64,000 nt of DNA, taken from Nemertoderma westbladi (Eukaryota > Animalia > Xenacoelomorpha). A program made the translations under genes and the position numbers. Below, piece by piece: positions 664-58,199 of this stretch (positions within the stretch are counted from its first letter, which is position 1; every line of letters begins with the position of its first letter). Below the pieces are notes generated by a model. The model was not told the origin of the DNA, did no database searches, and saw only the letters and a program-made list of their open reading frames with translations. The DNA is taken from contig JAUCBJ010008582.1 in assembly GCA_032718475.1 (NCBI GenBank), positions 4,481-68,480 of the forward strand, read 5' to 3'.

Positions 664-1780
664 TTATTTACTAAGATTTGTTGGAGACTTATAATCTCCA
701 GACTCATTCCGAGTCTCTTCAAGAAGTACGAGACGTTGAGTCGGTCTGTCTACAGTACGACCGTCAATTGTCTGTACCATCACAGTCCTTGTCACTCCGT
801 CCATAGATGGGTGTATATCTAAAATAACACCAGTTAACCAGAAGCGTCTTTTTAAATTCACTTCTGCTAACAGTACATGATCGCCCGGTTTTAAAGCTCG
901 GGTGTTATTATACCAAGTAGTTCTGGCAGAAATAGAGGGCAAATAATGGTTTTGCCATATTTCCCAGAATTTGTTAGCTAGTAGTTGCGTGATTTTCCAC
1001 GCCTTTCTACCATAGCTATCGCCTTCCATTGGAATAGAAATAGGCATCAATGTAGTCGGTGCCTGCATTAGCAGGTGTGCTGGTGTTAAAGCAAACTGGG
1101 ATTGTTTGTCATCAGGTACTAATACTATGGGTCTAGTATTTAGTATTACCTCGATTTCAACAAACAATGTGGTCAATTGGTCGTCTGTCAAGATGTGGTG
1201 TACTGGAATGACTTTTGCCATGGCTGTTTTAATGGATCTTATCAGTCTCTCCATGGACTATCTGTAGGGTTAAATCTCCAAACAATCTTGTAAGGACGTA
1301 ATTCGTTGGAGATCTGATCGTGATCTAATTTCTTAAAGGCCCTTGCAATTTCATTTCGAGCACCAACAAAGTTTGTACCTTGGTAATATGAACTGCCCTA
1401 CTGGACATATATCAGTCCCCAACATTTTACTAGTATACATCCACATTTCGTATTTATGGGACCAAAGCAGTCAATTCCAGTCTCTGTGAAAGGTGGTCTG
1501 AATGCTTGTAGTCGTGCTTGTGGAAGTTCACTCATTTCTTGGGTACTTATTCTAGAATGTACCTTTTTACAAATAATACACATACGCGTCACTGAACTTA
1601 GCGCTTTACTGGGTCTAATTAATACAAATCTTGTACGTAAATGTGAAAGACAGTGGTGTCTTCCAGCGTGTTTTAGTTGTAAATGTGCGTCCAGTATCAT
1701 TGCACGTTGTAATTCGTGATGTTGTGGTATTATTATTGGGTATCTAAAGTCTGTATTAAAGTCAATGTTTTGAAGCCGAG
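664..1780 (-). pseudogene. BEL/Pao integrase, copy B, disrupted
   Basis: HHCC zinc finger (HLQLKH..CIIC), GIDCFGP, ERLIRSIK, LTPAHLL, DUF5641-like C-terminus; deletion near 1384 relative to copy A removes the SDQG motif. Confidence 0.93.
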
Positions 1781-2405
1781 ATTTATGACAAATTAAGCCA
1801 TTATAAATTTATCGGACTCCAACTCAATATTGGTGACGACTTGATTGGTTGACCTTGACTTATAGATGTGAATTTGCGTGCGAAATATCGCAATTGGTAA
1901 TGGCGAATTAATTTAATTTCACATCTGTCAATCTCAGTCGTGTAAAGTCGCGTTTGCCCTTAACGTATTGTACAAAACGTACAATCCACGCTAATTTTCG
2001 GCATGCTTTTGTCCAAGAATCTGTCAGGTTTACAATACGGTCGACATAAGTATTTATGACGTCATCAGGTAAGTCAGTGATAAGTCTGGAAGGTCTAGTT
2101 TTACTAGATGGGCCCACGGGTCCGCCGGTAGGTATTCCCTTATTGACTGTTGATCCGTCCGGGTCTACGAGTATTTTGTCCTTCTTCGTCTTCTTACCTT
2201 GATTGTCGGTACTTTGCGAGTCGATCCTTAATGGTGGTTTAAATTCTATAGGATCACTGGATTTCGGTAAACTTATGTTTCTGCCGATATTTATCCCAGG
2301 TCCCACCGTGGGTTGTAAGGTTGGTATGTCTCTTGAGCGCAAAGTAACACCTGTATTTACATTTGTATAGGTACTACCCACATCTGTAATACATGAGGTT
2401 TCACT

Positions 2406-5083
2406 CTACTTATGGTTACTCAAGAGTGTCAAATTTGATAGTTTGTCAATAGAAGGCCGCTCCAATAGAGAAACTGCGGCTTTACTATGTATTGATGTGT
2501 TACCAATGTCTGGTGACATATCTGGCGAAATGTCTGGTTGACCGTCTGGTAACATGTCTGGTTGATCATCTGGTAACATGTCTGGTTGACCGTCTGGTAA
2601 CATGTCTGGTTGATCATCTGGTAACATGTCTGGTTGACCGTCTGGCGATGCATCTGGTGAAGAAAGGCTCGCAAGTCTTCCGTTTTTAACTTTATAAGTT
2701 ATATTTTTCCTTTTCGCCTTTGGTTTCTTCTTAAGTTTCGCCGTCGTCTTTTTCTTTGCTTTCCCTTTCTTTGGTTTTTTAATTTCTGCGTCCTTAGGGA
2801 TAGTGTTAGACTTATTATTGTATAATGGCGGCCAATGTTGTGATGATCTTTGTAAGAATTGTGGTCCATGTTGCCAAAATTTCTTGTTCTCCGGTTTACA
2901 GAACTCCTCGGGCATCATTCCTCATGACGCAATATCAGCTGGATTTTGTGGTCCGGGACAATGTCGCCAATCTTCCTTTATTGAACGGTCTAAAATTTCC
3001 GCACGACGGTTAGCTACAAATGTCTTAAATTCAAGTCTGTCGTTGTTTATATAAAACAAAACTAACGTCGCGTCAGTCCAATAAAATATCTGTAAACTTG
3101 ATTGTAGTTCAGTCTGTATAAGGTTTACAATGGTAGTTGACAAGGTTGCTGCTTGTAGCTCAGCGCGTGGTGTCGTCATATACTTAGTAGGCATGGTTTT
3201 AGCCTTAGAAGTAATGAGCGATACATCAAACTCGTCTAAGTCTACTTGTCTACGCAGATACGCTGTCACTCCAAAGCCATTGTCACTGGCGTCAGAAAAA
3301 CAATGTAATTCTAAATTGTCAGGAAATGTCGATTGTAATGGAAAATACACCCAGGGTATGGAATAATCTTCTAGTGAAGACAATTGCGCCTTCAAGTTTT
3401 CCATAAGTCTACTTGTTCAGATGAGATCGGTTCGTCCCATGTCAGTCCATCTTTCCAGATACTGCGCATATATATGCAGGCTTGCAGTATTATTGGGCTG
3501 ATGAAACCTAATGGATCAAACAATCGACTCAACTTTGATAAGCAGGATCTCTTGGTCAGAGAACCTCCTTGATCATCCAATCTCACTTTTACTTTAAAGT
3601 TGCCTGTGTTGGGGTCCCAAAATAATCCCAACACCTTGGTCATCGGTAGTGGTTCAAATTCTAGATCTATGTCACCACCCCCACGCTCAGTCGTTTCGAA
3701 CGAATTCACCAATTCGGTGCTGTTTGAAGCGAACTTGGTTAGATTAAAACCTCCAGTTGCTAAACAGTCCCGTAGTTGATGTGCTACCGTTATAGCACGT
3801 TCTACTGTGTCACAACTCTGTAATCCATCGTCAACGTAAAAGTCTCTTTCTACAATTTTAATTATCTCTGGGTCATATTTGTGTTTCTGGTCCCTAGCGG
3901 TTTGTTTTAGGGCGTACATGGTACAATTTGGGCTATCTCTGGCACCGAATACACGAGCTTGCATTTGGTAAGTCGCCGGTGGTTGACTTAAGTCTCCATC
4001 CGGGTAACAGAGGAACCTCAAACTGTCTCTGTCTCGCTCTAACGCTCGCACCTGGTGAAACATTGCTTCCACGTCGCAAGTAAATGCTACTTGACGTTGG
4101 CGGAAGCGCATAATCACCCCCATGAGATAATTATTCATGTTTGGTCCGTCTATCAACTCACTATTGAGAGACATTCCCTCAAAAAGAGCCGCACAGTCGT
4201 TAACCACACATACCTTTTCTGGTTTGTCAGGGTGTCTCACATAGTGATGTGGCAAGTAGTATGTCTGATCTGTCACAATCTCCGGGTTTGTCATTCTGAT
4301 AGCGTACCCCTTTGTCAAATACGTCTCCATTTGAGTATTATACCTTAAATGGGCTTTCTCGTCCTTTAATAAATGTTGGCGTATTGAGTTTAAACGCTTT
4401 AAGGCTAGTGGATAGTTATTTATAAGTTTCGGTCGTTGGTTATGCCATAACATCCCTACCTCATAATGTCCGTCTTTCGTCTGGCGTATAGTATCCTCCA
4501 TGATCTTTAAAGATTGTTTTTCTTGTTCCGACATACATGGTTCGTAACTACCAGGTTTGGCGGTATCTTGCTCCAACCATTTGATAGTCTTCTCTGTTAA
4601 TTCTTTGTCCAATGCAGCTTGTTCCACTCGATAATTTCTTAGTGCGACGACATCGGCGGGTGTTTGTAACGTTCTTGGATTAGGTAGACTCGCAAGCCTT
4701 CCGGTGTTATCATCTGTCGTTGATGGAAACTCTGCTTGACGCGTCTCCTTTCCAATTTCCAAACTAACCTTGTGGATTGGTTTTTGCTCTTCATGACTTA
4801 GTGTATTCGCTACGCACGTCGTACCTGTAACATTGTCGTGTCTCGTCGACTGTTGCGTAGTATAGTCTCTTCCGTTTGAAAAAGAATGAGACAAAGTTGT
4901 AGTTAATAAACTACATGTACTTTGTACATCATCTTCCTCGTCACTCATATCTAGTGTGCGCACAGGCGCTCGAGTATACCAACCTATCGGAGTTCTACAG
5001 GCATAAGCGTTTCCTGCTACTACTACCGATGGTCTGGTTTCCCACACTTGATGCAAGTTGAATTGGTCTGTCCCGATCAACAT
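2406..5083 (-). pseudogene. BEL/Pao reverse transcriptase and RNase H (Peptidase A17 region), frameshifted
   Basis: YLPHHYV, DVEAMFHQV, FGARDSP, FYVDD, FDPLG; RNase H FSDAS, PRAELQA, WTDA, NPADIAS. Confidence 0.95.
2505..2657 (-). repeat. 24-bp coding minisatellite (PDGQPDML/PDDQPDML) in the RNaseH-IN linker
   Basis: Repeated tctggtaacatgtctggttga units; also present at about 18825-18952. Confidence 0.95.
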
Positions 5084-7130
5084 CGCTACTGATCTCTAAT
5101 TAACAGGACATTCTGGTACACCAAGGTGTCTAAAATACTTACGGTCCTCCAAGGATTGTTCTGGCAATGGACCTAGTAGGTTACTAAAGTCCTTTGCGGC
5201 CGCAAAGGTTAAATCCCTAAAAGGAAGCAAAGACCTCTCCTTTTCGCTATGTTGCGATTTTGGGAGAAGGGTGTCTAAGTTCAACTTAACTCTTGTCACT
5301 GGTATTGCACGTTGTCCATGCATACTACTTACGGTATATCTGACATTCTTCCCTTGTTGAAGGTCCGTTACGACGTCAGCTACCTTCTCATCCACGTAGC
5401 TGTGAGATGAGGCTGAATCTAGTATGGCGTAAATACGTTTGCTCCCCTTGGTGCCCGTAATCTTGACAGGAATTACACTGAATCCTTTCAGTTGATCAGG
5501 CGTCAGAAGTGCAATTGATGGTTGTTTGTCTCCAGTATACGCGTTGTCATCTTCTGACTCTTCATCCGAAGACCCGGATTGTTCTGGGAAACAATCCCGT
5601 ATATGCGTCACAAAGGTTGGTGTTGTTTTCGATTCTCGTGTTTTATATGCAGCATTACATTTTGCGGCTGCTTCTGGGTGTTCCCTGGTGAAGCGTTTCG
5701 TCGGTGTATGACTATCTGTGTGGAGTAACGCGTCATGGTTGTGTCCACAAGAAGGACAGGTGTCTGTATTTGGACAATCTTTACGGACATGTCCGTGTTG
5801 TGTACACCTCCAACAAGAATCTAATGGCCGTATTTGTAGCCGTCGTTCTTCAGAGTTTAACTCACGGAATAGTCTACATCCTCTCAATTTATGACTAGTA
5901 TGCCGCTTACCTATTCTTTCGCAGTATTGACAACCGCTGAAGTTGGCAGTTAGTTGCTGTCTGCTCTGTTTGATCCCTATTGGTGCGGACACTTTATAAC
6001 CGTCGGAAAATTGTTGGGTTTCTGTCGGTGTGGCGTAAGTGACCATCCTTGTGGATGTCGTCTGTGGTTTCTGTCGGTTAGAAGATGGCAATGTTATCCC
6101 CTCGGCTACTATATGTTGGTCGGTGTAGTTCGACCGAGTTTCGACCACTGCTTCCCTGGATATTAATAGGTAAACGTCTTCTAACTTTAAAAACCCACCA
6201 GTCTCTTCTCGCTGGTATTCGATCTTTCTCCACTCCCTACGAAGTCGATGGTTTGCGTAATCTAGTTGTCCGATTGATCGTAAAGTCGTAATGGAGTTCT
6301 TAATTTCGTCGGCTAACTTCAGTAAGTCCACAGGTTTGGTAATGGCTCCCCCTTTACAGAGTTCTTCTATTACCGACTTGGCCATACTTACTGTACCGCC
6401 GTAAATCGAAGTTTAAACGATCATAAGCCAACTCAAAGGCGTCTGGTACACCGACAAAGGTCTCTGCTAGACGTTTTGGTTCTCCCGTCAGTGTTTGAAG
6501 CAGATAATTAAACTTCTCTCTCGATGTAAAAGCGCAGGCTGCGATTTGAGATTCAATATAGTCCACAAATGTATGCCAATGTTTAGAATTACCGGAGAAC
6601 TTTGGTGGTTGCTGCACTGGTAGTCCTTGTCTGGCTGCGAATTTAGCTATCTCTTCAGCGACATTCAAAGTTTTGCATCCTTGTGTGGCAATCGAATTAA
6701 TTTCTCCTGTCCTGGACGTCTTTTCGGATACGAAGTATTTCCTGAGGGTACCGTCCTTTGCGGATCCTTCGGGTGTCTGGTGTGCTCGAATTCCATACTT
6801 ACTCTCGAACTATCGGTTTGAGCTTCCTCTAAACGTTCCTCAATCTGGGCCAACTTGTTAACAACTGGTCGCATTAGGTCGGCGAATTGTTGAGTGCTGA
6901 TCGCGTCTGTTGGTTGTAACGCTTTCTGTGTTGGTGTATTTTGTGGAGGATCATTTATAAAGGAATTTGTTGAATGCTCACGTTTGCATTCATCGGCCGC
7001 TCCTGTTCTAAACACCTCGCGTTCGGGGTATTCCGATTCGCTTGAAGTGCTACTATCACCTGGATACGGTGGCCGACGTGCTCGCGTCTGTTGTGTCGTC
7101 CGAATTCTAACACTTCGTTTTGAAACATCG

Positions 7131-7449
7131 TCTACTGGTCTCCGTTGTTCGGTAGGCTCGCAAGTCTTCCTCGAAGTCGTAGATTGCGATGTAAACTGGT
7201 TGAGTGGTCGCGTATCTACTGGTCTCCGTTGTTCGGTAGGCTCGCAAGTTTTCCTCGAAGTCGTAGATTGCGATGTAAACTGGTTGAGTGGTCGCGTATC
7301 TACTGGTCTCCGTTGTTCGGTAGGCTCGCAAGTTTTCCTCGAAGTCGTAGATTGCGATGTAAACTGGTTGAGTGGTCGCGTATCTACTGGTCTCCGTTGT
7401 TCTGTTGGCTCGCAAGTCTTCCTCGAAGTCGTAGATTGCGATGTAAACT
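7131..7449 (-). repeat. 84-bp coding tandem repeat (about 3.8 copies) in gag
   Basis: Encodes QFTSQSTTSRKTCEPTEQRRPVDTRPLN repeatedly. Confidence 0.97.
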
Positions 7450-8131
7450 GAATGTGTGGCCGCAGAATGGCGTTTGAATCTAAAGGCCTTGTAGGTCTAA
7501 ACACAGTTGGGTTGGCTTAGTGTGTGACAGGTTTGGGTGTCGAAGGTTGACTCACCTGTTTAGTCGTCAGTAATGTAGGTCCGGCTAATAAACTACTACG
7601 GTCCGTAATTGGCGGATTACTTACCTTGACTTTTGGAATAGGCGATGACGTTGCTCTCGGCGGTATAAATTTGTCCGGAATAACAAACCTGTGTTCCGTC
7701 GCATCGTGGATAGGAGATATGTTGCTACTACCCTCAATCGAAACAGATTTTTTAGACGTAATTGGTGCAAACATAGGAGTTACTTGAGGAAATCGTTGCA
7801 TTAATTCATTAACTAATTCTCGTCCTCTCTCGGGTGCCCTACACTTCCTTCCTTTTTTCGTTCCTGAATTTGGCGATGCCTTACCTCTATCCTGTCTAGA
7901 TCGTGTCCGTCTCGAGATCTCATCGATCGATCGTGGGCTTTAAGATCCAGATCCTCTTGGCATTGGCTAATTCTCTCGCCTTCCTTTCGAGTTCGAAATG
8001 AAGTTTAACCTCTTTCTCATGTTGTTCCGTTTGTTGTTGTTGTGCCTCGAACTCCGCTAGTCATATAGCTGATTGAGCCTTTATTTGTCGTTTTTTAATT
8101 TCGGCTCTTGCTTCTGAAACTAACCTTTGTT

Positions 8132-8265
8132 CTTCCAATTCCGCTGCTCGTCGTTCCAACTCGGCTGTTGCCGCTTGTCGTTCCAACTCAGCTGTTGCTG
8201 CTTGTCGCTCCAACTCAGCTGTTGCTGCTCGTTGCGCTAACTCAGCTGCTGCTGCTTGTCGTGCT
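8132..8265 (-). repeat. 27-bp coding repeat (AATAELERQ) in the gag coiled coil
   Basis: Visible in ORF 8061..9263. Confidence 0.85.
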
Positions 8266-11200
8266 ATTTCTAGCTCTAACCTTTCCATCTCAGCTGCTTC
8301 TAATTCGGCTGCTTCTTGTAGATGAGAGATTCTCGCAACATTTGCTACCCGTAGTTTCTCTTCCTCTACTGCTGCTTGTACCGTTAGCAATTGAGTTTGT
8401 TCCTCAATTTCTTGTTGTTGTCTGTAAAACTGTTGCTGTTGTCGAGAAATTTCTGATGTTATTATACTCACCTCGCCAATTTCGCTACGAATACTCACCA
8501 ATGATTGATCCAGTATTCCCAGTGCCAGTTCTGTCTGTACGGGTGAAGCTTCCCTCGTAGCCTCCGGCACGGTTTCCAAATCTCCGACATCTTTGCCGCA
8601 CATACGTAAGTGATCCGTCAGATATTTCAGTTGTCCATCCAGTCTATACAGTTCTTGTTCTTCCTCGGGCTGCAATAATTCATCGGAAACTGACTCACCT
8701 AGCAACTGGTAGCATTGTTCCTGTTGTATCAGTCTAACGGCCGTCTTAAACTGAATTAGTTTCTCCCTAGCGATCATTAATTTCTCGAGGATCTTAAACT
8801 GAGTGTCCGCATCCTGTCTTTGTCTAGCTAGATCTTGTAGACTGATTAGGTCACTTACGGACTTATGTACCTTACTTTGTACTCTAACCTGTAAGGTGTA
8901 AAACTCGAACCGGGACATCGGAGTGGTCAACTCGTTTAATATGCGTTGGCCTTCTCCAATACTCCTAGTAATATGCGCCATGTATCCTCCGACGCTTCTA
9001 ACAACGCTCTCTTGGCTTCCTACTGAACTAACCATATCCGTTTCCCTGTATCTAGGCTGCGGAACAGTTAGAAAATCCTCAGTCCTGCCGTCACCTCGCA
9101 CTACGGCATCCGGTACTCCCGTTGGATGTACTGGTGACGCACACGGTGTTGGTTCGGTAGGCTCGCGAGTCTTCCCTTGTGGTTCTTCCGCTACTGACTT
9201 ATCCGCGTCACATGAGTCATAGTCAGTAGGTGTATTTTTCGTATAGTCCTGTTTGTCACTCATTTCGGTAGTTGTAAGTCAAGTAAATGTGAGTGTCAAA
9301 ATATCGACTTACCGTATTTATATCAAAACGGTACTAATTACAATTCAAACATATAAAATTAGCCTAGCGGCCAATTTTACAGCAAATAAATGTCACAGAA
9401 TAAGTATATAATAAAATTAGCCTAGCGGCCAATTTTATAACAAATAAATCGGATAACGATATACATTATCAAAATGTAATTCAAACGCAAATAATACGGA
9501 CTAATTCAGCAATAAACAAAGAAATCGTACGGAATGCATAAATACCTGAGACAGTGGAACCCACAATAATTTTAACTAATACGGTAATGCCTAACTGATT
9601 AATGCAACTTTTCAAACTTACCCTCTCCAAAATTCTCCAGAAAAACAGATTCCCAGATACAAACCGGACGTGAACCTTTCCGTTTCCAGCGTTGCGGACG
9701 AAGTGCGATTTTCCCCAACCAAAGTTGTTGAGTTATCAATCTCCCAAACTTGCTAAACACGGTCTTGCTCTCGTTACAGTCTAGAAATGAGCTCTGAATC
9801 CTGAAAAACAAAAGAGTTTGGTTTTACTTTACGAAAAATATTGTACCGGTACAATATGGTATTTAAACCCTTTTAAACACCGGTATTTAATTCCAAAATA
9901 TTTTACACATGGTTCAAAATATGAATTGTATTCATTAATTAGCACTTAGCTAATCAAATACAAATTTTTACCTCAAAATACAAAATTTCTAAAATATTTT
10001 TAGTCCTACTGAACTATAGTTCAGTAAAACACATTCTGTGTTAAAATAACACATTCCTACTGTTTGATCGACCAGATCTACAAACATATTCCTACTGTTT
10101 GTAGATTCCGAAATCACATCTCTACTATATGTGAATCCTGCAATATCCTACTGTAAAGTCTGTGAATCATAAAACATAAATCCAACCTTCTCACCTAAAC
10201 AGTAAACTCTAAGTAAGCGAATCTATTGCAGTATCGGTCTCGTTAACCAGTGAGGCAGAAAACAGTCTACGAACGGACAAACTTCGATAATACAAAATCC
10301 CGCGCAGCGAATCCTAACAATCGTGCTGACTTGCTGACGGACTAAAGGCGCTCGTATACTTTGCCGCGGTGTGATTTATATGGGGTGGGGGTTGCTAGCT
10401 AAATATCTAACTAGCGGACGAACTGCGGCGTGGACAAAATTATTTTATATATTTCGAGGTGTAAATAATTCCTAAACGTGTGTGTGTTGAATTTTATAAT
10501 CGAATTTTAGTTTTGTATCCCTTCACATTATATAATTTACTGGGTCCGGTGTGCATTTTACAAATATTCTAATTTTGCGGTCTGTAGGTCTAATACTCAC
10601 AGATGATAAGGCTCCTTCCCCTTTTGTGTATTTCCAGGACTCAAATTCAGGCATAAGGTTAGTAACTACGCCCGGAATTCGGCAATTTAAATCTACCAGG
10701 TCCCTAATACTAAGAAGAAATGTGTTAGTTTACTACAGTAGGCATACAGTTACGATAGCTAGCCTGGTCTCCTATCTAGAATTTTGGTTGCCTAGGTGGG
10801 CGTGGCAACTTCTTATCAGGATGTCGGCGGGGACACGGTAGGTGTTAGTATCCCAGATAGCCCTAATTTGTAATGCGCCTAGCACAATAAACTGCCCGAC
10901 CACCTGACCGGTACAATCTTGATTCAGGCAAGACACGGTAAACTTCTCTTGGCCTACAGACTCCAATACAAGCAATGGACACCGTTGTACTACAAAATAA
11001 GCCACAAGCGCACCTATACACAGCAAATAAGTTAGGCGTACAGTTGTGATGTACCCTACCAATGTACATGCCCCGTAATGGTGTGCCTGCGTCCTATCTG
11101 TGTACCTGTATCTATTCTCTCTCTCTCTTTTACTCTCCCCCGTAGGAATGTGAAGGAGTACCGCGGGTTCTGCCAGAATCAAAACAGTACAGTTCCTAAA

Positions 11201-11429
11201 TTTAAATTTTGGTGCACAGCGTGTCACTACGTCTACCTTTGATCTCAGGTCTTACACTTAGGTAGCAAGGCATCAAACGCTGTCTAACCTTTCAGGCGAT
11301 GGGCGAAGAACTATGAATCGATATTGTGGGTGGTCTCCTTTCTACATTCCACCGATGTTCCCGTTCATTGCTGCGGCCTGCTGCTTAACCTGCCATCTGT
11401 CCCTCAGTTGGGTTCACCGTGGTGAATCA

Positions 11430-11993
11430 TGTTAAAACAGATGTAACAATAATTCTAACTTTATTACAAATAGCAAACAAATTACGAAGATAAAGCACAA
11501 AGATAATCTAGTGATTAAGATTGATAACTAATTGCACAAACGCACCTTTATATAGTAAATTAGTGCTGCCAATAATCTAGATAAATCTAGATCATTCTAT
11601 AGGTTCCATTACGTTTTTAAAGATAACCATTGGTCCAACAAACGAATAACTTGCACGACATTGGTTACTGTCAAATAACTGCAATTACATTGGTTAATCT
11701 ACCTTGAGCAGATACAATTCAATCGCAGCGGTCAATTCAAATAAGTTGAAAATTGGCACAAAAAACAATTTACACCTGCTAGGATTTGAATTCGATACCT
11801 ATCAAACGATTTTCTAACGCATAACCCACTGAGCTACTGAACCACTTGAATAATGTTGTACAAATAGCTATACCAAATGCAAATGAGAACTTAATGCAAT
11901 CTTATAACATATGAACCTATCAAATAATGCAAATTAATTCCAACTTATTAAAATTTTGAAATTTCACAGCTTTTGTGAGGATATAATTCTATA
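11430..11993 (-). repeat. LTR-B, shared between tandem copies A and B (about 564 bp)
   Basis: Matches 19598-20006 plus 24217-24372; similarity ends exactly at 11993/24372; three CCAAT boxes, TATATAAAG and AATAAA on the minus strand; the 3' boundary (..TTAACA) is inferred. Confidence 0.85.
11760..11843 (-). promoter_or_regulatory. tRNA-like Pol III cassette (A box, B box, T-run) inside LTR-B
   Basis: A box TAGCTCAGTGG (11826-11836), B box GAATTCAAATCC (11782-11793; GAGTTCAAATCC in LTR-A), tRNA-like spacing, downstream T6. Confidence 0.75.
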
Positions 11994-12099
11994 CCGCTCC
12001 ATGAAAACAGGATATTATCATGCATAAAATATACGGTTTTCACCAATAATTACAAATCAAATTATGAAATACTTAGAGCGTACATATTTAAGGCTTTAA

Positions 12100-12624: not shown

Positions 12625-15600
12625 TCATACTACAGGACTTATGGGGCGAGTCACTAGTTTACCTTGGACGTTGGGAGACGGTGCGACCATTTCCTCACAA
12701 GCTCGCCTCTTAGTAAACCCAAATCCTCGTCCAACTCCTCGTGACCGATTAGTTGGTTCTACCGATGGCAAAACGTCTGGGAACGCGCTGGAAGAGGACG
12801 GCGCAGACCCAAGACAAGCTTGTGCCCCCTTTTGATCGGCTGGTATGTGTCCCAATCCTCCTCGCGGTTCTCTGGGAAGTGACACCGTATCTCGAGTAAC
12901 TCGAATAGTCGGCTCAAATCCCTTTCGTTCTTCAATGTTAAGAGTTTTCTTTAATTGTTGGCTCACTTTCTGAACCCTTATGATCCTGTTCTGTCCGTCC
13001 TCCCGAGGGTGAAGTGCAGACGGCGCAACCGGAGTGGCTGGTTTGTCGGTCGCCTCTAGGATCTCCTCTTCCTCGAATACGCTCGACCGTATACGTTTAT
13101 GGTAGAAGGCGGCTCGGTACGCCCATGCGACTGTTAACCCAGCTCCCTTGTTTCGCTTTTCAGTTCGAAAGCGGTAGAATTCACCATACGTGATACGATT
13201 AACGACTTTCTGGAAATTCCAAGTGTTCTTATTGTCTGGATGAATCTGCAATAAATATTCTCGCACGACCCTGAATCCACTATCGTGAGGCAAAATGTCA
13301 ACTACCTCTATCAATTAATCATACTGTGGCATAGCGGAGATATATCCTTCCGACATCATAGTTTGAGGATTTACCGCCCAAAATCCGAGGTGTGCTCTCA
13401 TCGGGAATCGTCTTCTTTGTGCCGATACATGTTCGTCAGCTAAATCTTCCCAATTATCAAACAGTTTTCTTACGAGTTTCACCGACTCGTGTTCATATGG
13501 TATGTCTCTCAACTGACATTCAGATGCTCGATGTCCCTTTATATTGCAGTATGAGCATTGTGCCATAAATCTCCAGCAAGTATAAAACGTATGGGATCCC
13601 TGGTCTCCACACCATCCACAAATCAGTTGAGTCGTAGTAATATGTTTTCCGCTGCATTTCGTTGAATGATGTCCAGCGACGCCACATTTACCACACATCG
13701 TATTAGCAGGGTTCCACACTCACTCATATATAAGGTCACCAATTGGTCGAGCGCTTCCTCCCACACTATAGTCATAATCGTCTGGATCTACAGTTTGGTA
13801 TGTTTCAGAAGGTTGTATACAAACTACAGCATCCGTTGCTTCAAGTTGAAAAATCTCCGTCTGGGATTTCTTCGGGAGCTTCCTTTCGATCTCAAGAAGT
13901 TCCTCCAGAGGATCACCGATAATCGTTGTTGCTTCAGAATCATTACCGAAGTGACCGATAGGCGCGCGCGTCTGCCGTGATTCGTCAGTAACCTCTACGA
14001 TACGTTCTCCTTCATAAGGTAACATTGTAAACATAGATGGTCTTTCGATAAGAGATCCCGCACAGCGAAGATACACGTCTCGAAATATACTAAATCCTGC
14101 TCGAGTAAAGGCATTGCACTGAGCGTCGGAATTGTAGAAGGGTTCGAGAAATCGTCTAAACACGTCAGTATGAATTCTCCCTTCCTCGTAGAACGTATGT
14201 CCTTCTCCGAGACAAAGTGGATGTCTTTTAAGAGTCCGAGACACAATGTCGGCGATTAAGCAAACATTCACTGATGACTCTATCGCTAAATAATATTGTA
14301 TTACTGCTCTTGGAGGTGACGTAATAGCCCAATACACGCATCCTCTCCATTTTAGCTGTGATTCAAACTAATTCATATCTGGAGTATCACCTTCTCCATA
14401 TGTTTCAATATACTTGGTTCTTTTACTTTCCTTGTAATCCCAATTAAACATCAGGTAGGAAATGTATCCCATTCCGGTCTTTTGTGTATCATACTCCCGG
14501 AAAAATCCTTGTTCTATGGACCATAGTATAAGAGGTCGAGTGTCGACGTAAGGTGTCGGTAATCTGTCGTCACTATCCGACATGCCGGCAAAGTCGCTAA
14601 TTAAATCCTCTCTCACTCCTGATCCAATCTTTACAACGGTTTTGTCTAAAATAATGTTTCTTACCATCTTCGGTAACATTCTAGCATCGATGTTGCAGGC
14701 CTGGTCCATCTTCCTTACGATATTGGTAATGAGATGGTGCCGCTTAGTAGTTCCTTGAGGTATCGGCATTCGGTTGTCGCTCCTTTGTCTACTAAAAACG
14801 TACAAGACTCCGTCTGCCGCTCTAATTTGTATAGTCTTAGAAGTTAGACTTTGTTGATGGCTGCGGCCCTCATTATCATAAAACATATAACCATTTTCTT
14901 GAAATGATCTAAGCGTCCTGTGCCATTCGTCCATTAATTTTTCCGAAGGTTGCCAAATCTTCTCTATATCTTTCTCGTCCTCGAAACGAATAACTTTACC
15001 TTGCCAATTTGTGGCGATGTCTGTATCCGATTCAAAGGTTCCTGTCCCGATCCATAAGCGAATTGTTCTGGTCAGATATCCTTTCAAATTACTCGGAGCT
15101 ATATCGGCGCCAGCTCTATCCAGTTCTCTAAAGTCTTGAATATGCGGCGGAACGTTATGCACGACCTTTTGCGTAATGTGTCTACGTAAATCATATATTT
15201 TAACCATATCGCTCAGAACAACAGCAGGAAGGAACTCTAAGTTTGAAATAATTTCCGGATGATCCACGATAGGTATTTCATAAGTCGTATCTTCTCGAAC
15301 TGGTATACTAATAGGGAAATTGAGTGTCTTACTCAATGGTTTCGTAGTCGGAGTACTATGCAGTTGCATTTCTCTTGTCCTTTCCGGGGATGCAATCTGT
15401 AGTCTCTGAATAACGTTTTGGGCAAAGTTTATACTTTCGAAAATTTCCGGTGGGTGTCATCTCCTTAGCTGAAGTCTGATCGTGTGACGTCCAATGGTAA
15501 GGTAGGCTCGCAAGTCTTCCGCCCCATTCTTCCATCTCACCTTTCTCGAAAGCCTTATATGCTCTGTATAGGCTAAGAGCTTCTTTCTTTTCGCGGGTTG

Positions 15601-16291
15601 ACTGAGTCACCTCTTCCAGCGTAAGTTCAAATGCATCGGGTTCAACAATCTTAGGTGGACAAACGACAATTTCTCCCGCCTTTGGTCCACACATAGCGAA
15701 TGAATGATACGGATTAGATAAAGGATACCCTCCTTCCTGGTAACGTAGTTGTTGATGGTTCGAACACCTCGCCAATATCGGCTCGGGATTTTCCTTATTC
15801 AAACGCATCGGAATCGCCTTTTGTTGTTCGCGCATACAATCACCACATTGATAATAAAGTTTATAAACTGAAAAGGCTTCCTTTGTTTCTCTATCGTCTC
15901 CTCGAGTTCGTATGTAAAGATGCATTCCATCGAATTCATCGCGTACCACAGGCATAGGTTCATGCGCCTTCAGGTATTGCATGGTATGATACAAACGACT
16001 TATTTCTGTATCTAGGTCTTCACTAATATCTCCCGTATCGCATAAAGCATCGTACGGATAAAGTTCGTTGAAGGTTTGACGCAAACTTTCGATTCTCTCG
16101 TTTAAAGCGTTCTGCCTCCTCTTTAATACCATTGAGTCATATTTAGTTTTAGCGAGTTTTGCTGTACTCTCCGATAAATCTTTTATTCCAAATATAGTGT
16201 AGTCTTTTGCTCCGAATCGTTCAAATGGAGCTGCTGCTTCCTGTTGAATATCATATCCCCATCTCGGCTCTCCAGATATCCCCTTTGCCAT
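12625..16291 (-). pseudogene. Extra retrotransposon ORF3 (about 1200 aa reconstructed): unknown N-terminus, DEDDy 3'-5' exonuclease, three CCHC zinc knuckles
   Basis: 15369..12625 is one frame broken by three stops; ExoI YMFYDNEG..KTIQI, ExoII ILDKTVVKIGSGVREDL, YVDT, ExoIII W..QYYLAIE; knuckles CGKCGVAGHHSTKC, CGWCGDQGSHTFYTC, CSYCNIKGHRASEC; one frameshift near 15360. Confidence 0.8.
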
Positions 16292-16957
16292 TATTAGATG
16301 TATTTGTTACATAATCATTACTACTAGAGGGAATACAACAGAGTTTTATGTTAGTTGTGAGGAGATTTGGGAGTTTTTCGTCTGCCTTTTTGGCTCGACA
16401 ACGCTCTAACCTCCTACCCATAGCCTAAGATCTAGGGTTTCTTTAATGACACACTGTTTCTTATTTAAAATTTTGCCGAAATAAAAACGATTTGGGCTAA
16501 ACTGGCTGTGAGTCTAAAATACTCACCTTTTGATCCCAAACTATTATCAGAAAAATAAGCAATCAAGAATTAGTAATATTATAGGGAAGTCTATTGGTTG
16601 ACGTAACTTATTGAAACAAGACCGTGTAAAATTTAATTTAATTTTAAGAAAGGCTCGCGAGTCTTCCGTTCTCTTGTTTCTCTAATTTTAAGTTCCACCC
16701 GACTGTACCCTGAAATCCATTCACTGGAGAATCAATTTAAAAAATTTTTCAAATGCAAATGGATTGTCTAAAATTTCGAAAATGTCTCATATTGTGAGTT
16801 CCAAGTAGAATTCCATTTCTTATACCTACAAATCCCGCTCCTATGTGACACATAAGGGTACTACCCTTTAATGTTCACATATAAAGACAATGGAATTCTA
16901 CCGCTGTCTTTACTACAGTGTACAGGTACGTGGAAATCTATTTGGTAAACACATATA

Positions 16958-18170: not shown

Positions 18171-20006
18171 GAGATTTATGACAAATTAAGCCATTATAAA
18201 TTTATCGGACTCCAACTCAATATTGGTGACGACTTGATTGGTTGACCTTGACTTATAGATGTGAATTCGCGTGCGAAATATCGCAATTGGTAATGGCGAA
18301 TTAATTTAATTTCACATCTGTCAATCTCAGTCAATGTAAGTCGTCGTGTAAAGTCGCGTTTGCCCTTAACGTATTGTACAAAACGTACAATCCACGCTAA
18401 TTTTCGGCACGCTTTTGTCCAAGAATCTGTCAGGTTTACAATACGGTCGACATAAGTATTTATGACGTCATCAGGTAAGTCAGTGATAAGTCTGGAAGGT
18501 CTAGTTTAACTAGATGGGCCCACGGGATACTTTGTTGAGTCGATCCTTAATGGTGGTTTAAATTCTATGGGATCACTGGATTTCGGTAAACTTATGTTTC
18601 TGCCGATATTTATCCCAGGTCCCACCGTGGGTTGTAAGGTTGGTATGTCTCTTGAGCGCAAAGTAACACCTGTATTTACATTTGTATAGGTACTACCCAC
18701 ATCTGAAATACATGAGGTTTCACTGTACTTATGGTTACTCAAGAGTGTCAAATTTGGTAGTTTGTCAATAGAAGGCCGCTCCAATAGAGAAACTGCGGCT
18801 TTACTATGTATTGATGTGTTACCAATGTCTGGTTGACCGTCTGGTAACATGTCTGGTTGATCATCTGGTAACATGTCTGGTTGACCGTCTGGTAACATGT
18901 CTGGTTGATCATCTGGTAACATGTCTGGTTGACCGTCTGGCGATACGTCTGGTGAAGAAAGGCTCGCAAGTCTTCCGTTTTTAACTTTATAAGTTATATT
19001 TGTAATTTTACAATTTACAATTTTACAATTCTAATTTGTAATGCGCCTAGCACAATAAACTACCCGACCGCCTGAACGGTACAATCTTGATTCAGGCAAG
19101 ACACGGTAACCTTCTCTTGGCCTACAGACTCCAATACAAGCAATGGACACCGTTGTACTACAAAATAAGCCACAAGCGCACCTATACATGGCAAATAAGT
19201 TAGGCGTACAGTTGTGATGTACCCTACCAATGTACATGCCCCGTAATGGTGTGCCTGCGTCCTATCTGTGTACCTGTATCTATTCTCTCTCTCTCTTTTA
19301 CTCTCCCCCGTAGGAATGTGAAGGAGTACCGCGGGTTCTGCCAGAATCAAAACAGTACAGTTCCTAAATTTAAATTTTGGCGCACAGCGTGTCACTACGT
19401 CTACCTTTGATCTCAGGTCTTACACTTAGGTAGCAAGGCATCAAACGCTGTCTAACCTTTCAGGCGATGGGCGAAGAACTATGAATCGATATTGTGGGTG
19501 GTCTCCTTTCTACATTCCACCGATGTTCCCGTTCATTGCTGCGGCCTGCTGCTTAACCTGCCATCTGTCCCTCAGTTGGGTTCACCGTGGTGAATCATGT
19601 TAAAACAGATGTAACAATAATTCTAACTTTATTACAAATAGCAAACAAATTACGAAGATAAAGCACAAAGATAATCTAGTGATTAAGATTGATAACTAAT
19701 TGCACAAAACGCACCTTTATATAGTAAATTAGTGCTGCCAATAATCTAGATAAATCTAGATCATTCTATAGGTTCCATTACGTTTTTAAAGATAACCATT
19801 GGTCCAACAAACGCATAACTTGCACGACATTGGTTACTGTCAAATAACTGCAATTACATTGGTTAATCTACCTTGAGCAGATACAATTCAATCGTAGCGG
19901 TCAATTCAAATAAGTTGAAAATTGGCACAAAAAACAATTTACACCTGCTAGGATTTGAACTCGATACCTATCAAACGATTTTCTAACGCATAACCAACTG
20001 AGCTAC

Positions 20007-22111
20007 GGCTGGGGTAAGATAGCCTGATTGGAGGGGGGAAGAAAAAATGACAACAAAGGAGGAAAAAGGGGGGCAAGAGAAAAGGGGAAAGAAAGGGAAG
20101 GATAAAAAGGGAAAGGACGGAAAGGAAAGAAAAAGACAAGAAAGTTATCGATCTTAGCTTACAAGTATCACTATCTCAACCTCGTGTCTGTCGGTCTGTT
20201 TGTCTGACGGTATGTCGTCGGTCGGTCTGTCGGTCTAATCTTTGGTCTCGATTAAATGAGGCCGTTTCTGGCGTCGCACAATTTCGTGGTCCGCCGCTAG
20301 GTTGTGCTAAATATATTGTCATCTAGGCTTACTAACTCACTCTCGTGCAGCGCGAAGGCCCACCCCACGCCCTCGTGTTGCGTTAAAAAAGAGAACAATG
20401 GCGAAAGGGAAAGAAAATAAAAAAGAGGGTTTGGAATTAAGAGAAAATAAAATTGGAATAATACACACATTTCTTTGCTTTTAATAATTAGTAGATAAAT
20501 ATTTATTGATTAAATACTGTAAATGCCGCATTACACAATTTAACGGCAGTGAAACGTTTATGTAATTAAATAACGGTATACCTTCTTTTCGTGCCATTAT
20601 GGTAAATGGCACCAAAAAAAGGTATACCGTTATACACGACGTTATATTGAACTTATATTAGCTATTATAATAAATTGAGCTATTACTGTATAAAAAACGT
20701 AGGTCCTTCCTAAATTACAGAATATTATTATACTGTAATATAATAAAAACTACAGTTACATAAGGTAAAATTGAACATATGTTAAAATTGTACGTCGGTA
20801 AACACGTAATATAATAAATTATATACGATACTTTGTGTAGTATTTTGCTGATCAGAGTGGCCTGTAACACAAGTATAAGTAACTTAGTTGTTACACGAAC
20901 GAACGTTGGTAGTGGGTGTAAATTAAGCCACAAAACTGTAAAGTTATGGGATCAAACACTGAAAAGTTATGTAGCCTACAGGTAGCGTTACTTACGCAGT
21001 AACATGCGCTCTCCCTTTTGACGTTCATAAAAATAGATATTCGATAGGTCATCTGTCATCAAATACTCCCCGTTCCCCAATCGTTCCCCAACAGCGATAT
21101 GTTCCGATGTACTTGCTCATCTGGTGCTTCATGTTCGGCGGTAAAATATCGGTGGCGACTGGGCACCGCCACTTCCCCTTTATAGCCACATTTGGCCCCA
21201 AACCAAATTATATCAATTTCGTTTCGGTTCTAAGCATTCTTGCAGTAGTTGTTTGTACAATATGTGTCTCGTCAGTTTGTTTGTATAGTTGGTGTTTCGC
21301 CAGTGTAGTTGTTTGTACAGTAGGTGTTTTGTCAGTAATTGTTTGTAAAGTTTTGGTGTTTCGTCGGTAGTTGTTTGTATAGTTGACGCAACTTGTATAA
21401 ATAACTTGTATTTATGTATTTATGACACATTGATGACTCATTGCTGGGTCTGCTGTGTTAAGTCAAATGTATACAGAGTACAGCAGGGTGGCAGGCTGGA
21501 AACCAATAACCAAGCCTTGACCTGGTGGCACCTACTACCAGTACAAGTAAACCACATAATGGAGTCTACAGTATGTGCTTGGCTTCCCAGATAGAGAGAT
21601 AGACACTGGTTGGTTATGTACAATACAAGGCCGCTGTCCACTGCGTCAAGATACAATGAAGCAAGTTCTATGCAGCTATGCTTAGATGTAGGGTCACATA
21701 CTTTATGATAATATACACCACACAACTCATTATTTACATGTTTGTTTGATTTAAACAAGAATGCAAATTAAAAATATTCAAATGGAGCATTCACATATTT
21801 TTTGTTAATTTTTTTCCGTAATGAAATACTTAGTTACGTCTGAATTTATTATTAATTCATAGTACAATCCATTCTCGGCATCCAGAAAGTTTTCAACTAC
21901 AAACAGCTTATGAATTCTAAATTAGCCAATCACAGGCCTCGGTTACTAAGTTGGATTCAAGATGGAATTCCCTAGCTAGCTAAGTTGAACAACCAATCAA
22001 ACGTGTCTCTGCCTGGGACGTACCTTAGCCCTCTGCCTAGGACGGACCTCAGCTTAGCCTAGGACGCACCTAGGACGCACCTCAGGGCCAACTGTTTTTG
22101 GGCTGAGCTAC
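20007..22111. mobile_element. Non-autonomous TIR-less element inserted in the tRNA-like A box, copy 1 (Dada-like candidate)
   Basis: 2105-bp unit including one CTGAGCTAC; that 9-mer occurs at 19998-20006, 22103-22111 and 24208-24216; no credible ORF; family assignment is inference. Confidence 0.8.
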
Positions 22112-24216
22112 GGCTGGGGTAAGATAGCCTGATTGGAGGGGGGAAGAAAAAATGACAACAAAGGAGGAAAAAGGGGGGCAAGAGAAAAGGGGAAAGAAAG
22201 GGAAGGATAAAAAGGGAAAGGACGGAAAGGAAAGAAAAAGACAAGAAAGTTATCGATCTTAGCTTACAAGTATCACTATCTCAACCTCGTGTCTGTCGGT
22301 CTGTTTGTCTGACGGTATGTCGTCGGTCGGTCTGTCGGTCTAATCTTTGGTCTCGATTAAATGAGGCCGTTTCTGGCGTCGCACAATTTCGTGGTCCGCC
22401 GCTAGGTTGTGCTAAATATATTGTCATCTAGGCTTACTAACTCACTCTCGTGCAGCGCGAAGGCCCACCCCACGCCCTCGTGTTGCGTTAAAAAAGAGAA
22501 CAATGGCGAAAGGGAAAGAAAATAAAAAAGAGGGTTTGGAATTAAGAGAAAATAAAATTGGAATAATACACACATTTCTTTGCTTTTAATAATTAGTAGA
22601 TAAATATTTATTGATTAAATACTGTAAATGCCGCATTACACAATTTAACTGCAGTGAAACGTTTATGTAATTAAATAACGGTATACCTTCTTTTCGTGCC
22701 ATTATGGTAAATGGCACCAAAAAAAGGTATACCGTTATACACGACGTTATATTGAACTTATATTAGCTATTATAATAAATTGAGCTATTACTGTATAAAA
22801 AACGTAGGTCCTTCCTAAATTACAGAATATTATTATACTGTAATATAATAAAAACTACAGTTACATAAGGTAAAATTGAACATATGTTAAAATTGTACGT
22901 CGGTAAACACGTAATATAATAAATTATATACGATACTTTGTGTAGTATTTTGCTGATCAGAGTGGCCTGTAACACAAGTATAAGTAACTTAGTTGTTACA
23001 CGAACGAACGTTGGTAGTGGGTGTAAATTAAGCCACAAAACTGTAAAGTTATGGGATCAAACACTGAAAAGTTATGTAGCCTACAGGTAGCGTTACTTAC
23101 GCAGTAACATGCGCTCTCCCTTTTGACGTTCATAAAAATAGATATTCGATAGGTCATCTGTCATCAAATACTCCCCGTTCCCCAATCGTTCCCCAACAGC
23201 GATATGTTCCGATGTACTTGCTCATCTGGTGCTTCATGTTCGGCGGTAAAATATCGGTGGCGACTGGGCACCGCCACTTCCCCTTTATAGCCACATTTGG
23301 CCCCAAACCAAATTATATCAATTTCGTTTCGGCTCTAAGCATTCTTGCAGTAGTTGTTTGTACAATATGTGTCTCGTCAGTTTGTTTGTATAGTTGGTGT
23401 TTCGCCAGTGTAGTTGTTTGTACAGTAGGTGTTTTGTCAGTAATTGTTTGTAAAGTTTTGGTGTTTCGTCGGTAGTTGTTTGTATAGTTGACGCAACTTG
23501 TATAAATAACTTGTATTTATGTATTTATGACACATTGATGACTCATTGCTGGGTCTGCTGTGTTAAGTCAAATGTATACAGAGTACAGCAGGGTGGCAGG
23601 CTGGAAACCAATAACCAAGCCTTGACCTGGTGGCACCTACTACCAGTACAAGTAAACCACATAATGGAGTCTACAGTATGTGCTTGGCTTCCCAGATAGA
23701 GAGATAGACACTGGTTGGTTATGTACAATACAAGGCCGCTGTCCACTGCGTCAAGATACAATGAAGCAAGTTCTATGCAGCTATGCTTAGATGTAGGGTC
23801 ACATACTTTATGATAATATACACCACACAACTCATTATTTACATGTTTGTTTGATTTAAACAAGAATGCAAATTAAAAATATTCAAATGGAGCATTCACA
23901 TATTTTTTGTTAATTTTTTTCCGTAATGAAATACTTAGTTACGTCTGAATTTATTATTAATTCATAGTACAATCCATTCTCGGCATCCAGAAAGTTTTCA
24001 ACTACAAACAGCTTATGAATTCTAAATTAGCCAATCACAGGCCTCGGTTACTAAGTTGGATTCAAGATGGAATTCCCTAGCTAGCTAAGTTGAACAACCA
24101 ATCAAACGTGTCTCTGCCTGGGACGTACCTTAGCCCTCTGCCTAGGACGGACCTCAGCTTAGCCTAGGACGCACCTAGGACGCACCTCAGGGCCAACTGT
24201 TTTTGGGCTGAGCTAC
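22112..24216. mobile_element. Same element, tandem copy 2
   Basis: Almost identical to 20007-22111 (differences seen at 20545/22650 and 21228/23333). Confidence 0.8.
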
Positions 24217-24513
24217 TGAACCACTTGAATAATGTTGCACAAATAGCTATACCAAATGCAAATGAGAACTTAATGTAATCTTATAACATATGAACCTATC
24301 AAATAATGCAAATTAATTCCAACTAAATAAAATTTTGAAATTTCACGGCTTTTGTGAGGATATAATTCTATAGTAGGGCCTAGCTATATTATTATAACAT
24401 GGCTCCAAACGCCACCATAAATATAAGCTAACTGATTTATAACATAATTTATGTCACTTTTTACATTTATTTATACAGCAACAAATTTAATTTGTCCAGT
24501 TTCTATCACTTAT

Positions 24514-24700
24514 ACACCATGTCCTGGAATATAGTGTCGATATTCATTCAGATCCCCCCCCCCCCCCCCCCCTTCCAAATTGTTTTACAAATCTTAATGA
24601 GATTGCATGAAATTTGAAACAGAGATAATTTCACCACCCTCCTCCTTGCTGGGTGAGCCAGTTTTTATTTTCGCTTTCATTCTTTAGCTACAAGTGTCAA
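24514..24700. mobile_element. Partial arm of the Tc1/mariner-type MITE family at 26107-27023
   Basis: Starts tacaccatgtcctggaatatagtgtcg, like 26105. Confidence 0.75.
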
Positions 24701-25021
24701 TTTCGTAGTCAAACTACTGTAATACAAGAAAAAACTATGTTTTATTTCAAAACAAATGTTTTATTTATTTTATTCTCTCACTAATGCCTTTATCATAACA
24801 TCAATTCCTTGTAGGCGCGATTAGTTATCCTAAAAACTTTATTTAAACTGTAACTAAATTATATTTCAGTGGTCTTTTTTACAATTATTCTACAGTTAAT
24901 TACAATATGATTAAAAATCCTCCTGTCTAATTTATACACTAATCTTTAGAAAAAAAAATTTAAATTAATAAGTGGTGTGATCTCTTGTTTGACTGTTAAA
25001 AACATTAATATTTACAAAATA

Positions 25022-45731: not shown

Positions 45732-46008
45732 AAAAGTAAAGTAAAAGTAAAGTAAATTTTCTTCGGCCGCTAGGCCAGGGATTACGCACAAAGTCTGACG
45801 ACTTATTTCCAGTGCGGTCCCCCCAGAACTTTACTCCCCAGAGGAAACTCCAGTACTCATTTAGCTACCACTTAAGGATGCAAGGCAGAGATGCGCCCTG
45901 GCTGGTCCCTTTAAAGCATTCGTGCCGAAACGAAAACTGCCCTGGCCCATGTGAGGATCGAACCCACGACCTACGGGAGATGTGAATTCAATGCAACCAC
46001 TACACCAA
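45732..46008 (-). mobile_element. tRNA-derived SINE
   Basis: A box TGGTGTAGTGG, B box GGTTCGATCC, central catccttaagtggtagctaaatgagtac resembling conserved SINE body domains, (TTTAC)n tail. Confidence 0.85.
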
Positions 46009-46542
46009 GGTGGAACCCTTGGTGTAGTTAAAGTAGTTAGTGTAGTTAAATAGTTGTATTTAGGTAGTTGGTGTAGTTAGATAACCTTGGTGTAACAGGT
46101 TTTCTAAACTCTTGTTTATTGTTTTGTTTGAAACAATTAACCACTATATAGCCTGTTCCTGTCCCCCAATTTACAATTAAGATTATTTATGTATGGTGTT
46201 GAGCAAACAAATTATACATTTCTTCGGGATAATTTTAAATAATGGATCTCGAATATGCTACCGGTGTCGTATGGTACTGTAATATTCTGATGGACTTTTA
46301 AAGCAACCCCCCATTACACCGCTATAAATTCCAATAAATTTGGCTTTTGCTTCAGTTGCCGGTTGTCGGTTTTGTTTGTTGTCTGAGATTGTTGGTAAAC
46401 ACTGTAGCGAAGTAATAATTCAAATGCGGCATATTAAATTAATACCAAACATATTGTATCTTATTTTATTTATTTGTTTGTAATTAATTTCGCACTACCA
46501 AATCGCCAGGGCGACATATTTTCCTGCTTTGGCTCATCCCAT

Positions 46543-48742: not shown

Positions 48743-48848
48743 ATGATGTAAGCAAATTATGTGATGGATTATTTCACTATAAGGTAGCATTTGTAGCTCA
48801 ACGTAAAAACTTTCTAAAATCCGACGCATTTTGATTAAATTACAGTAA

Positions 48849-49333
48849 TGTAATATGCCTATTCATATTGGTACACATAAATCCGTAGGCAATTCGATTG
48901 GCGCAGTGGTCAGATGGTTAAGGCGTTGGTTACATTACAGATAGGTTACGAGTTCGAATCCCAGTCGGGAAATTTGCATTTTTGGGCAATTTATTTTCAT
49001 TTGATCTAATTAGATAAGCCAATGAGGTGCGTACAACGTATGGAACGATGAGTTGGGCCAATCATAGGGCATAGAACATCTTATTGCTCCAATGTGAGAC
49101 CATGGAATGCTCTGGAATGTTCTAGTGGATTCTATGTCCCAGATTTGCTACATAAGGGCTGGTTTGCCTTCGGTTATCACTTGTTATTTCTAATAGCACT
49201 CTCACATTTACTTGTAACACTCACTTATCTCCATTCTTTAGTTACATTTGTTAAGTTTCTTGTTGGAACTTATGTAAATTTGGTTGATAAACTCTTTTGT
49301 AAATTACTCTAAATATACTGTAAACTTTGAACA
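48849..49333 (+). repeat. Putative 5' LTR of element 2
   Basis: TGTAAT...GAACA; same layout as LTR-B (tRNA-like box, three CCAAT, TATA-like, T-rich tail); no second copy in the window, so boundaries are inferred. Confidence 0.65.
48900..48983 (+). promoter_or_regulatory. tRNA-like Pol III cassette inside the element 2 LTR
   Basis: A box TGGTCAGATGG (48908-48918), B box GAGTTCGAATCC (48950-48961), T5 at 48979-48983. Confidence 0.75.
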
Positions 49334-57500: not shown

Positions 57501-58107
57501 TAACACCAGTGTGTTACACTGACGACGGCGAAAGCCAAGCTTCTCAAGAAGAGGACAGCGGGAAAGACACTGAGAGATCTTACTACGTTGACAAAACCTC
57601 AAAAGATGTAAGTAAATACAAGGCTCGAAACAGGTTGCCAAGACCCCTCCTCAGTCTCCTAACAGAATGCACCGAAGAAAACCCGAAGAAAAAACGAGAG
57701 TGCATCAAGTTACCCAAGGTAGAGTGAGTAACATAAAACCTAACTGTGCGCTGTGCGACGGGACCCACCGTTTGAGTGCGTGTGCTGAATTTCTAAAGAA
57801 ATCCCTTGTAGACAGACGTGCAGTTGTGTGGGACAAGCGGTTATACTATAATTGCCTCAGACCAGGACACCAACGGCGAACCTGTTACTCCGACATAAAG
57901 TGTGCAAAGTGTGGCGCGAAACATCACATCTTGTTACACAGTGAGTTCGAACGAGACAAACAGAGTCAGGTAAGTGAGCCCGAACTACATGTCCAATTCA
58001 GTGATGTAAATGACACTGATCAGGAGTCTGAGATGGAAGGATTCTATACTGACGAATTCTCCGACGCCAACGAATCCTGTTATCTAATCAATACCGCAGT
58101 GTATTGA
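54514..58107 (+). pseudogene. BEL/Pao gag of element 2, frameshifted
   Basis: 810-aa coiled-coil region; VKFNGDEMKWLPF..EKLRFLIKCLEG; knuckles CALCDGTHRLSAC, YNCLRPGHQRRTC, CAKCGAKHHILLH. Confidence 0.9.
55708..55895 (+). repeat. 33-bp coding repeat (AAAAEAEAERK), about 5.5 copies
   Basis: Seen in ORF 54514..56946. Confidence 0.95.
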
Positions 58108-58199
58108 GCACTTACTTATGAAAAGGACACCAACAATGAGTTTCCCCCAACTACTTTTGCCAAACAACCATCTTGGAAAGCTCCAACTTCCAACGTAGG

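Follow-up and report, generated by a model that had tools for sequence, protein, structure and literature searches.

A tRNA-type Pol III cassette, probably under selection, in the LTRs of two divergent BEL/Pao families

Cassandra and Ajax are non-coding TRIMs with 5S-derived (type 1) Pol III sequences, the Pol III transcript of Cassandra spans LTR to LTR, and the LTR Pol III units of foamy viruses are located in U3. In tiny non-coding TRIMs, LTR Pol III promoters are believed to stand in for a Pol II promoter. Sequence derived from tRNA has been described in the LTRs of Helenus (TRIMp3; Kojima 2024, PMC10886601), where boxes A and B are conserved, a functional tRNA is mostly absent, and several LTRs have a T-run soon past the B box. 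Helenus elements are presented in that paper as non-coding TRIMs of 311-1263 bp with LTRs of up to 323 bp, tied to Gypsy/Copia and with Pol III as the proposed promoter; their autonomous partners are expected to use Pol II and to share no LTR sequence with them (PMC10886601). The same account states that tRNA-like sequence is present in 'not a few' LTRs of Repbase and restricts its analysis to those shorter than 1 kb, and as the others were noted there and left unanalysed, unpublished precedents probably exist. For foamy viruses, which are autonomous and complex retroelements, an LTR unit of A box, B box and terminator is reported that gives rise to hairpin miRNA precursors (PMC3993851). A functional model comes from the cen1 tDNA-Ala of S. 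pombe, a barrier reported to require both TFIIIC and Pol III, whose occupancy stops the spread of heterochromatin (PMC2040200).

We analysed a stretch of eukaryotic, repeat-rich DNA of 64 kb (hereafter, the window) that carries two BEL/Pao families, E1 and E2, with a tRNA-type Pol III cassette in their LTRs. The cassette differs from Cassandra and Ajax in being tRNA-type rather than 5S-derived type 1, and its carriers are coding rather than non-coding. It resembles Helenus in its tRNA-type boxes, but E1 and E2 are long, coding members of BEL/Pao in which a CCAAT/TATA-like promoter follows the cassette, and no TGG-type PBS was found in them. What is already published is thus the tRNA-type LTR unit in non-coding Helenus TRIMs, and what differs here is the large coding BEL/Pao carriers. 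An earlier, sequence-only reading of this DNA (the initial annotation) made the comparison with Cassandra; Helenus, unnamed there, is the closest precedent, with its tRNA-like LTRs (PMC10886601). The likeness to foamy viruses lies in the unit and in its carrier; unlike the hairpin precursors described there, the E1 and E2 cassettes have no conserved hairpin. The S. pombe barrier is a genuine host tRNA gene, whereas here a degenerate unit sits on a mobile element and the barrier role is a prediction. In a literature search whose reach ended short of Repbase and subscription journals, we found no published coding BEL/Pao element with such a cassette.

Both families were assigned to BEL/Pao by Pfam matches to Peptidase_A17, DUF1759 and DUF5641 in the Pao-type domain order, and their RTs reach 46% in alignment. 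Each gag-pol is ~8 kb long and interrupted (E1 copy A, 664..9263, minus strand, with stops and frame changes; E2, 54514..62622, plus strand). E1 lies on the minus strand as two tandem copies, B and A, that have one LTR (11993-11422) in common; copy B is without most of gag-pol and copy A without a 3.5-kb stretch past pol. When the segment lengths are summed E1 is ~17 kb long; the usual size of BEL/Pao elements is given as 4.2-10 kb (PMC3118150). E2, on the plus strand, starts near 48750 and extends beyond the end of the window, its 3' LTR lying outside. Elsewhere in the window are an interrupted transposase (39729-41717, minus strand) with a Pfam DDE_Tnp_1_7 match, which we take to be piggyBac-like, and MITE-like long inverted repeats (24499-27025, 38276-38674 and 30466-34720), several of them with poly-C/G tracts.

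The LTR common to copies B and A (11422..11993, minus strand, 572 nt) has a well-defined start, as an identical sequence opens at 24372 after unrelated flank and at 11993 after GGAGCGG, and loose contig ends in sequencing run X4 agree with it; the 3' end is a putative one, placed by means of TTTTAACA. The adjoining GGAGCGG (11994..12000, minus strand) is PPT-like, similar to the purine tracts that precede TGT in outgroup BELs. Besides this copy at 12000, the motif is found at 16841 (minus strand) and at 63565, shortly past pol in both elements, where it is possibly a central PPT; further copies lie inside coding regions, and these central candidates may be due to chance. The 5' LTR of copy B (19590..24372, minus strand) has ~98% identity to the common LTR and holds a cassette that is split at the A box, with the B box intact (19960-19951). 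For E2 we infer a 5' LTR at 48747..49333 (plus strand, TGTAAG...TTGAACA, 587 nt), collinear with the E1 LTR, of which the exact start and the 3' end are both estimates. The summed contig depth, used for this left edge only and not for copy number, rises ~50-fold from bin 48727-48755 to bin 48756-48784.

Between pol and the LTR, E1 has an extra coding region (12625..16306, minus strand), interrupted, covered by contigs in all four runs and missing from copy A. It yielded one CCHC knuckle match, below the Pfam cut-off. A DEDDy exonuclease, as described for rotifer elements (PMC5408684), was suspected by eye, but this gained no confirmation, there being no Pfam or PDB match. The search for homologs of this ORF among longer proteins returned none, apart from one weak representative (E 3e-4), and the predicted fold was unusable (pLDDT 30).

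The cassettes lie ~150 nt into the LTRs. That of E1 copy A occupies 11760..11844 (minus strand; A boxes 11844-11834 and 11836-11825, B box 11791-11782, T6 11765-11760) and that of E2 occupies 48899..48983 (plus strand; A boxes 48899-48909 and 48907-48917, B box 48952-48961, T5 48979-48983), and the B-box position, counted along the LTR, is nt 203 in E1 and nt 206 in E2. The sequences quoted in the initial annotation for 11843-11760 (minus strand) and 48900-48983 agree with the window, and the K and R in its E1 quotation are differences between the copies, being G and A in copy A and T and G in copy B. In copy A, an A replaces G53 in the B box; the cassette of copy B (20006-19929) has an intact B box, GTTCAAATCC, with the canonical G53. 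The A box can be read in two registers that overlap, and in E1 and E2 alike these lie 53 and 45 nt ahead of G53. The better conserved register begins 1 nt earlier than the initial annotation had it, at 11844 and 48899 (8/11 identical vs 5/11 for the annotated one); the best A-box match falls in the first register in E2 and in the second in E1. T5+ occurs just once per LTR, 26-27 nt downstream of the B box, and the cassette interior is without T4. With its A and B boxes spaced as in a tRNA gene and a T4+ run behind them, the cassette has the layout of a type-2 (tRNA-type) Pol III unit, from which copy A deviates at G53. Downstream, as had been described, are three CCAAT boxes and a TATA-like box, which define by motifs only a Pol II promoter-like part in E1 (11548..11693, minus strand; CCAAT at 11693, 11664 and 11633, TATATAA at 11554) and in E2 (49019..49155, plus strand; CCAAT at 49019, 49058 and 49089, TACATAA at 49149); E1 has an additional CCAAT adjoining the T-run.

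The A- and B-box consensus patterns that we used agree with section 3.5 of PMC10886601. The B-box pattern RTTCRAATCC occurs three times in the 64-kb window, always in a cassette, vs 0.64 expected, and 3 of 100 shuffles reach three. Taken by itself, the A-box pattern is no more frequent than chance would have it (5 in the window vs 3.9 expected), and it misses E2. A scan for A box, B box and T4 together gave three matches in the window (E2, E1 copy B and a separate SINE) vs 0.09 expected, and only 1/100 simulated windows reach two; copy A was missed because of its B-box variant.

ARAGORN called no tRNA at the cassettes and there was no Rfam tRNA match at E<=10; with a lowered threshold ARAGORN made 242 meaningless calls across the window. 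In either register the stems are broken, with 2/5 T-stem pairs in each and 2-4/7 acceptor pairs, and no cloverleaf is formed. Folding is no better than that of shuffles (z 0.65 and 1.25). The loss of the T and acceptor stems indicates that the promoter, and not a tRNA, was what stayed conserved, and any role that requires a tRNA fold falls away. The separate tRNA-headed SINE-like copy (45740..46015, minus strand), with a body and a (TTTAC)n tail, is no part of the cassette and served as a control. On comparison with the SINE of the window, we rejected identity of the cassette with this SINE (local scores only 18-21, vs 43 between the cassettes) and also a tRNA-derived SINE insertion, as there is no SINE body or tail and the T-run directly follows the head, with the CCAAT boxes next.

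To place the two families, trees were built for the RT (129 sequences, the input including 67/80 loci and 60/120 database proteins after dropping duplicates and short matches), the C-part of integrase (124 sequences) and the two joined (95 sequences). E1 and E2 are sisters in all of them (SH 0.973, 0.995 and 1.0, respectively), at a distance of ~1.5 substitutions per site. Their four-fold synonymous sites are saturated, with 34/128 identical (0.258 expected at random).

Comparison of the E1 and E2 cassettes gave a gap-free alignment with 48/84 identical positions, vs 27/84 and 17/84 in the flanks in the same register, so that within the LTR the second refuting condition set in the initial annotation fails, the boxes having been conserved better than the adjacent U3. 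By part, identity is 11/13 in the B box, 6/8 and 7/9 in two adjoining blocks, 2/12 in the spacer and 6/16 in the tail. The cassette local score of 43 is reached by 0/1000 shuffles, and three U3 windows upstream of the cassette have z of -0.1 to 0.5. Other blocks are conserved between E1 and E2 as well. One is TATA-proximal (z 4.8), and several are in the leader (z up to 16), the latter collinear to E2 and located in E1 at 10244..11321 (minus strand; ~11321-11196, 10850-10562 and 10383-10244). Since the scores of several leader blocks equal or exceed that of the cassette, the cassette is not uniquely constrained; the conserved LTR module first described is real, though not the sole such block. 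The E2 counterpart of the leader blocks is at 49506-50667, and some have splice-donor-like words.

Unrelated tRNA-type pairs reach a score of at least 43 in 7/90 comparisons, one pair being identical, against an imperfect baseline of mostly phage tRNAs. Similarity alone is therefore no proof of common descent, which rests instead on position, register and tree. The cassettes score 43 with each other and 12-35 with the other units tested. Within the E2 family, 48899-48983 has no substitution among the 40 of 86 rows listed (~4 expected, P ~0.015, with contig effects possible), and indels within the cassette are in the spacer only among those listed. Possible cassette-deleted variants were seen in run X4, at joints 48911-49010 (depth 2670, short side 21 letters) and 48831-49010 (depth 241), and in run X2, at joint 48873-49115; another deep X4 contig retains the cassette with three changes. 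The preference for a retained LTR module over a chance SINE insertion is borne out, as the cassette has no body or tail, is unlike the SINE of the window and outlasts both the saturated sites and the flanking U3. In the two families of one organism that form the base of this comparison, the conserved positions suggest that the cassette is an inherited, retained LTR module, probably under selection.

To determine where else the cassette occurs, we searched 80 other metagenome BEL loci with a profile and an A/B-box scan, and none had it; a distant direct repeat was seen in 38 of these loci and measured 248 nt or more in 12, and many of them are same-family repeats. Seven strict B-box matches in the outgroup loci had no A-box context, and one (L043) lies within an ORF. 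The exact cassette pattern had no metagenome match, and a looser pattern matched seven viral loci, three of them tRNA genes called by ARAGORN. No relative turned up when viral contigs were searched by RT. The cassette is lineage-specific and not general to BEL/Pao.

In copy B the A box is interrupted by two tandem inserts of 2096 nt (19998..24216; 20007-22102 and 22112-24207) that are identical at 2094/2096 positions, with GTAGCTCAG at all three junctions. The insert has no terminal inverted repeats, no ORF of more than 131 codons and no transposase that could be found; contigs of runs X1-X3, and in part those of X4, cover it, and within it are short tandem repeats and, at 22675-22738, a palindrome of 64 nt. 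Dada transposons are reported to target TAGCTC then AG in the tRNA A box, to lack TIRs and to form tandem copies (PMC3706591, PMC8869645). The insert shares with them the site at tRNA nt 8-13, the duplicated TAGCTC, the absence of TIRs and tandem copies parted by one duplication, and it differs in an apparent duplication of 9 nt vs 6-7 and in having a transposon's cassette rather than a tRNA gene as target. It is likely a non-autonomous Dada-type element, judging from site and structure, and its insertion has duplicated the A box. As Dada is thought to read sequence, the insert is a sign of tRNA mimicry by the cassette, and not of binding or activity.

How the cassette could have been kept is a matter of several readings. 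That it is an inherited, selected Pol III unit, predicted to keep the neighbouring Pol II promoter open and silencing-resistant, is a reading to which we give about even credence. A tRNA gene or SINE head would have been captured once, in the U3 of the common ancestor; TFIIIC would bind the boxes and load TFIIIB and Pol III, yielding a short unstructured U-tailed RNA of ~85-100 nt that ends at the T-run ahead of the CCAAT boxes. The benefit would come from occupancy of the DNA, brought along to each new insertion site, and the genomic RNA would be made by Pol II at the CCAAT/TATA promoter downstream of the cassette. Since the T-run would halt Pol III before the CCAAT boxes, the cassette should be unable to make genomic RNA, and, as it precedes a Pol II-type promoter in elements that are long and coding, it is not explicable as a genomic-RNA promoter. 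The retention of boxes, spacing and terminator, together with the loss of RNA-fold features, favours an occupied Pol III unit. The G53 loss in copy A, the possible cassette-deleted variants and the differing best A-box registers speak against a selected unit. A barrier built on the B box alone would have no need of the terminator, whose presence is equally suggestive of an RNA product. The main rival to the barrier is that the short Pol III RNA itself matters, as an abundant decoy or small-RNA precursor against host silencing, like the foamy-virus miRNAs. The terminator at a constant distance, the interior without T4 and the extra coding region that makes E1 a complex element are consistent with it, and for SFV the A box, B box and terminator of the LTR Pol III units are each reported as tested (PMC3993851). 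However, neither hairpin nor cloverleaf is conserved, and the non-box parts, which would give the RNA its unique sequence, are at background identity (see the spacer and tail above), and we consider this account unlikely.

A nearly neutral relic, i.e., an old SINE or tRNA head in U3 that survived by slow decay or by later exchange of LTR and leader between families, would fit the patchy collinear similarity across the whole 5' non-coding region, the B-box mutation of copy A and the possible deletion variants. Decay should nonetheless have spread identity evenly rather than focused it on the boxes, the synonymous sites are saturated, and recent exchange predicts similar flanking U3, which is dissimilar here; such a relic is quite improbable in our view. 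We give little credence to two independent tRNA or SINE captures at a similar place, with the likeness owed to universal tRNA motifs only, although the scores of unrelated tRNA-type pairs noted above would permit it and section 4.2 of PMC10886601 considers Helenus to be of multiple origin. The equal LTR offset of the B boxes, the gap-free 84-nt register, the sister relationship, the doubled A box and T-run offset alike in both families, and the higher score of the cassettes with each other than with any other tested unit all argue for a single origin. The initial annotation had also proposed the cassette as a primer source. No TGG-type PBS was found past the inferred LTR ends of E1 and E2, nor after the LTR repeat in 12 outgroup loci; because the outgroups also have no PBS, its absence from E1 and E2 is uninformative. 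That reverse transcription is primed by the cassette RNA, in a clade without a standard tRNA primer-binding site, is very improbable. The 3' end of the cassette does not pair remarkably well with the post-LTR site (in E1 26% of positions are as good, in E2 6.5%), which does not bear out the proposal; the longest exact complement inside the own element is 11 nt, the outgroups without PBS have no cassette either, and Kojima reports having seen no such complementarity in Helenus (PMC10886601). We dropped a 12-nt stretch near 9740 that is complementary to the E1 start region, as it was spotted post hoc and is out of register in E2.

Taken further, the selected Pol III unit would make this a giant (~17 kb), complex BEL/Pao lineage with a working LTR Pol III gene that predates synonymous saturation, a portable anti-silencing device (TFIIIC barrier, decoy RNA or both) whose tRNA mimicry draws Dada; this we offer tentatively, as possible rather than probable. 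Elements of ~17 kb would escape surveys limited to 11 kb between LTRs, as in PMC6238403. A natural system is thus at hand for a direct test of the long-standing idea of a transposon-borne chromatin barrier of the tDNA type. A high-copy family of this kind would, if active, also spread TFIIIC sites, and decoy targets for tRNA-targeting elements, over the host genome.
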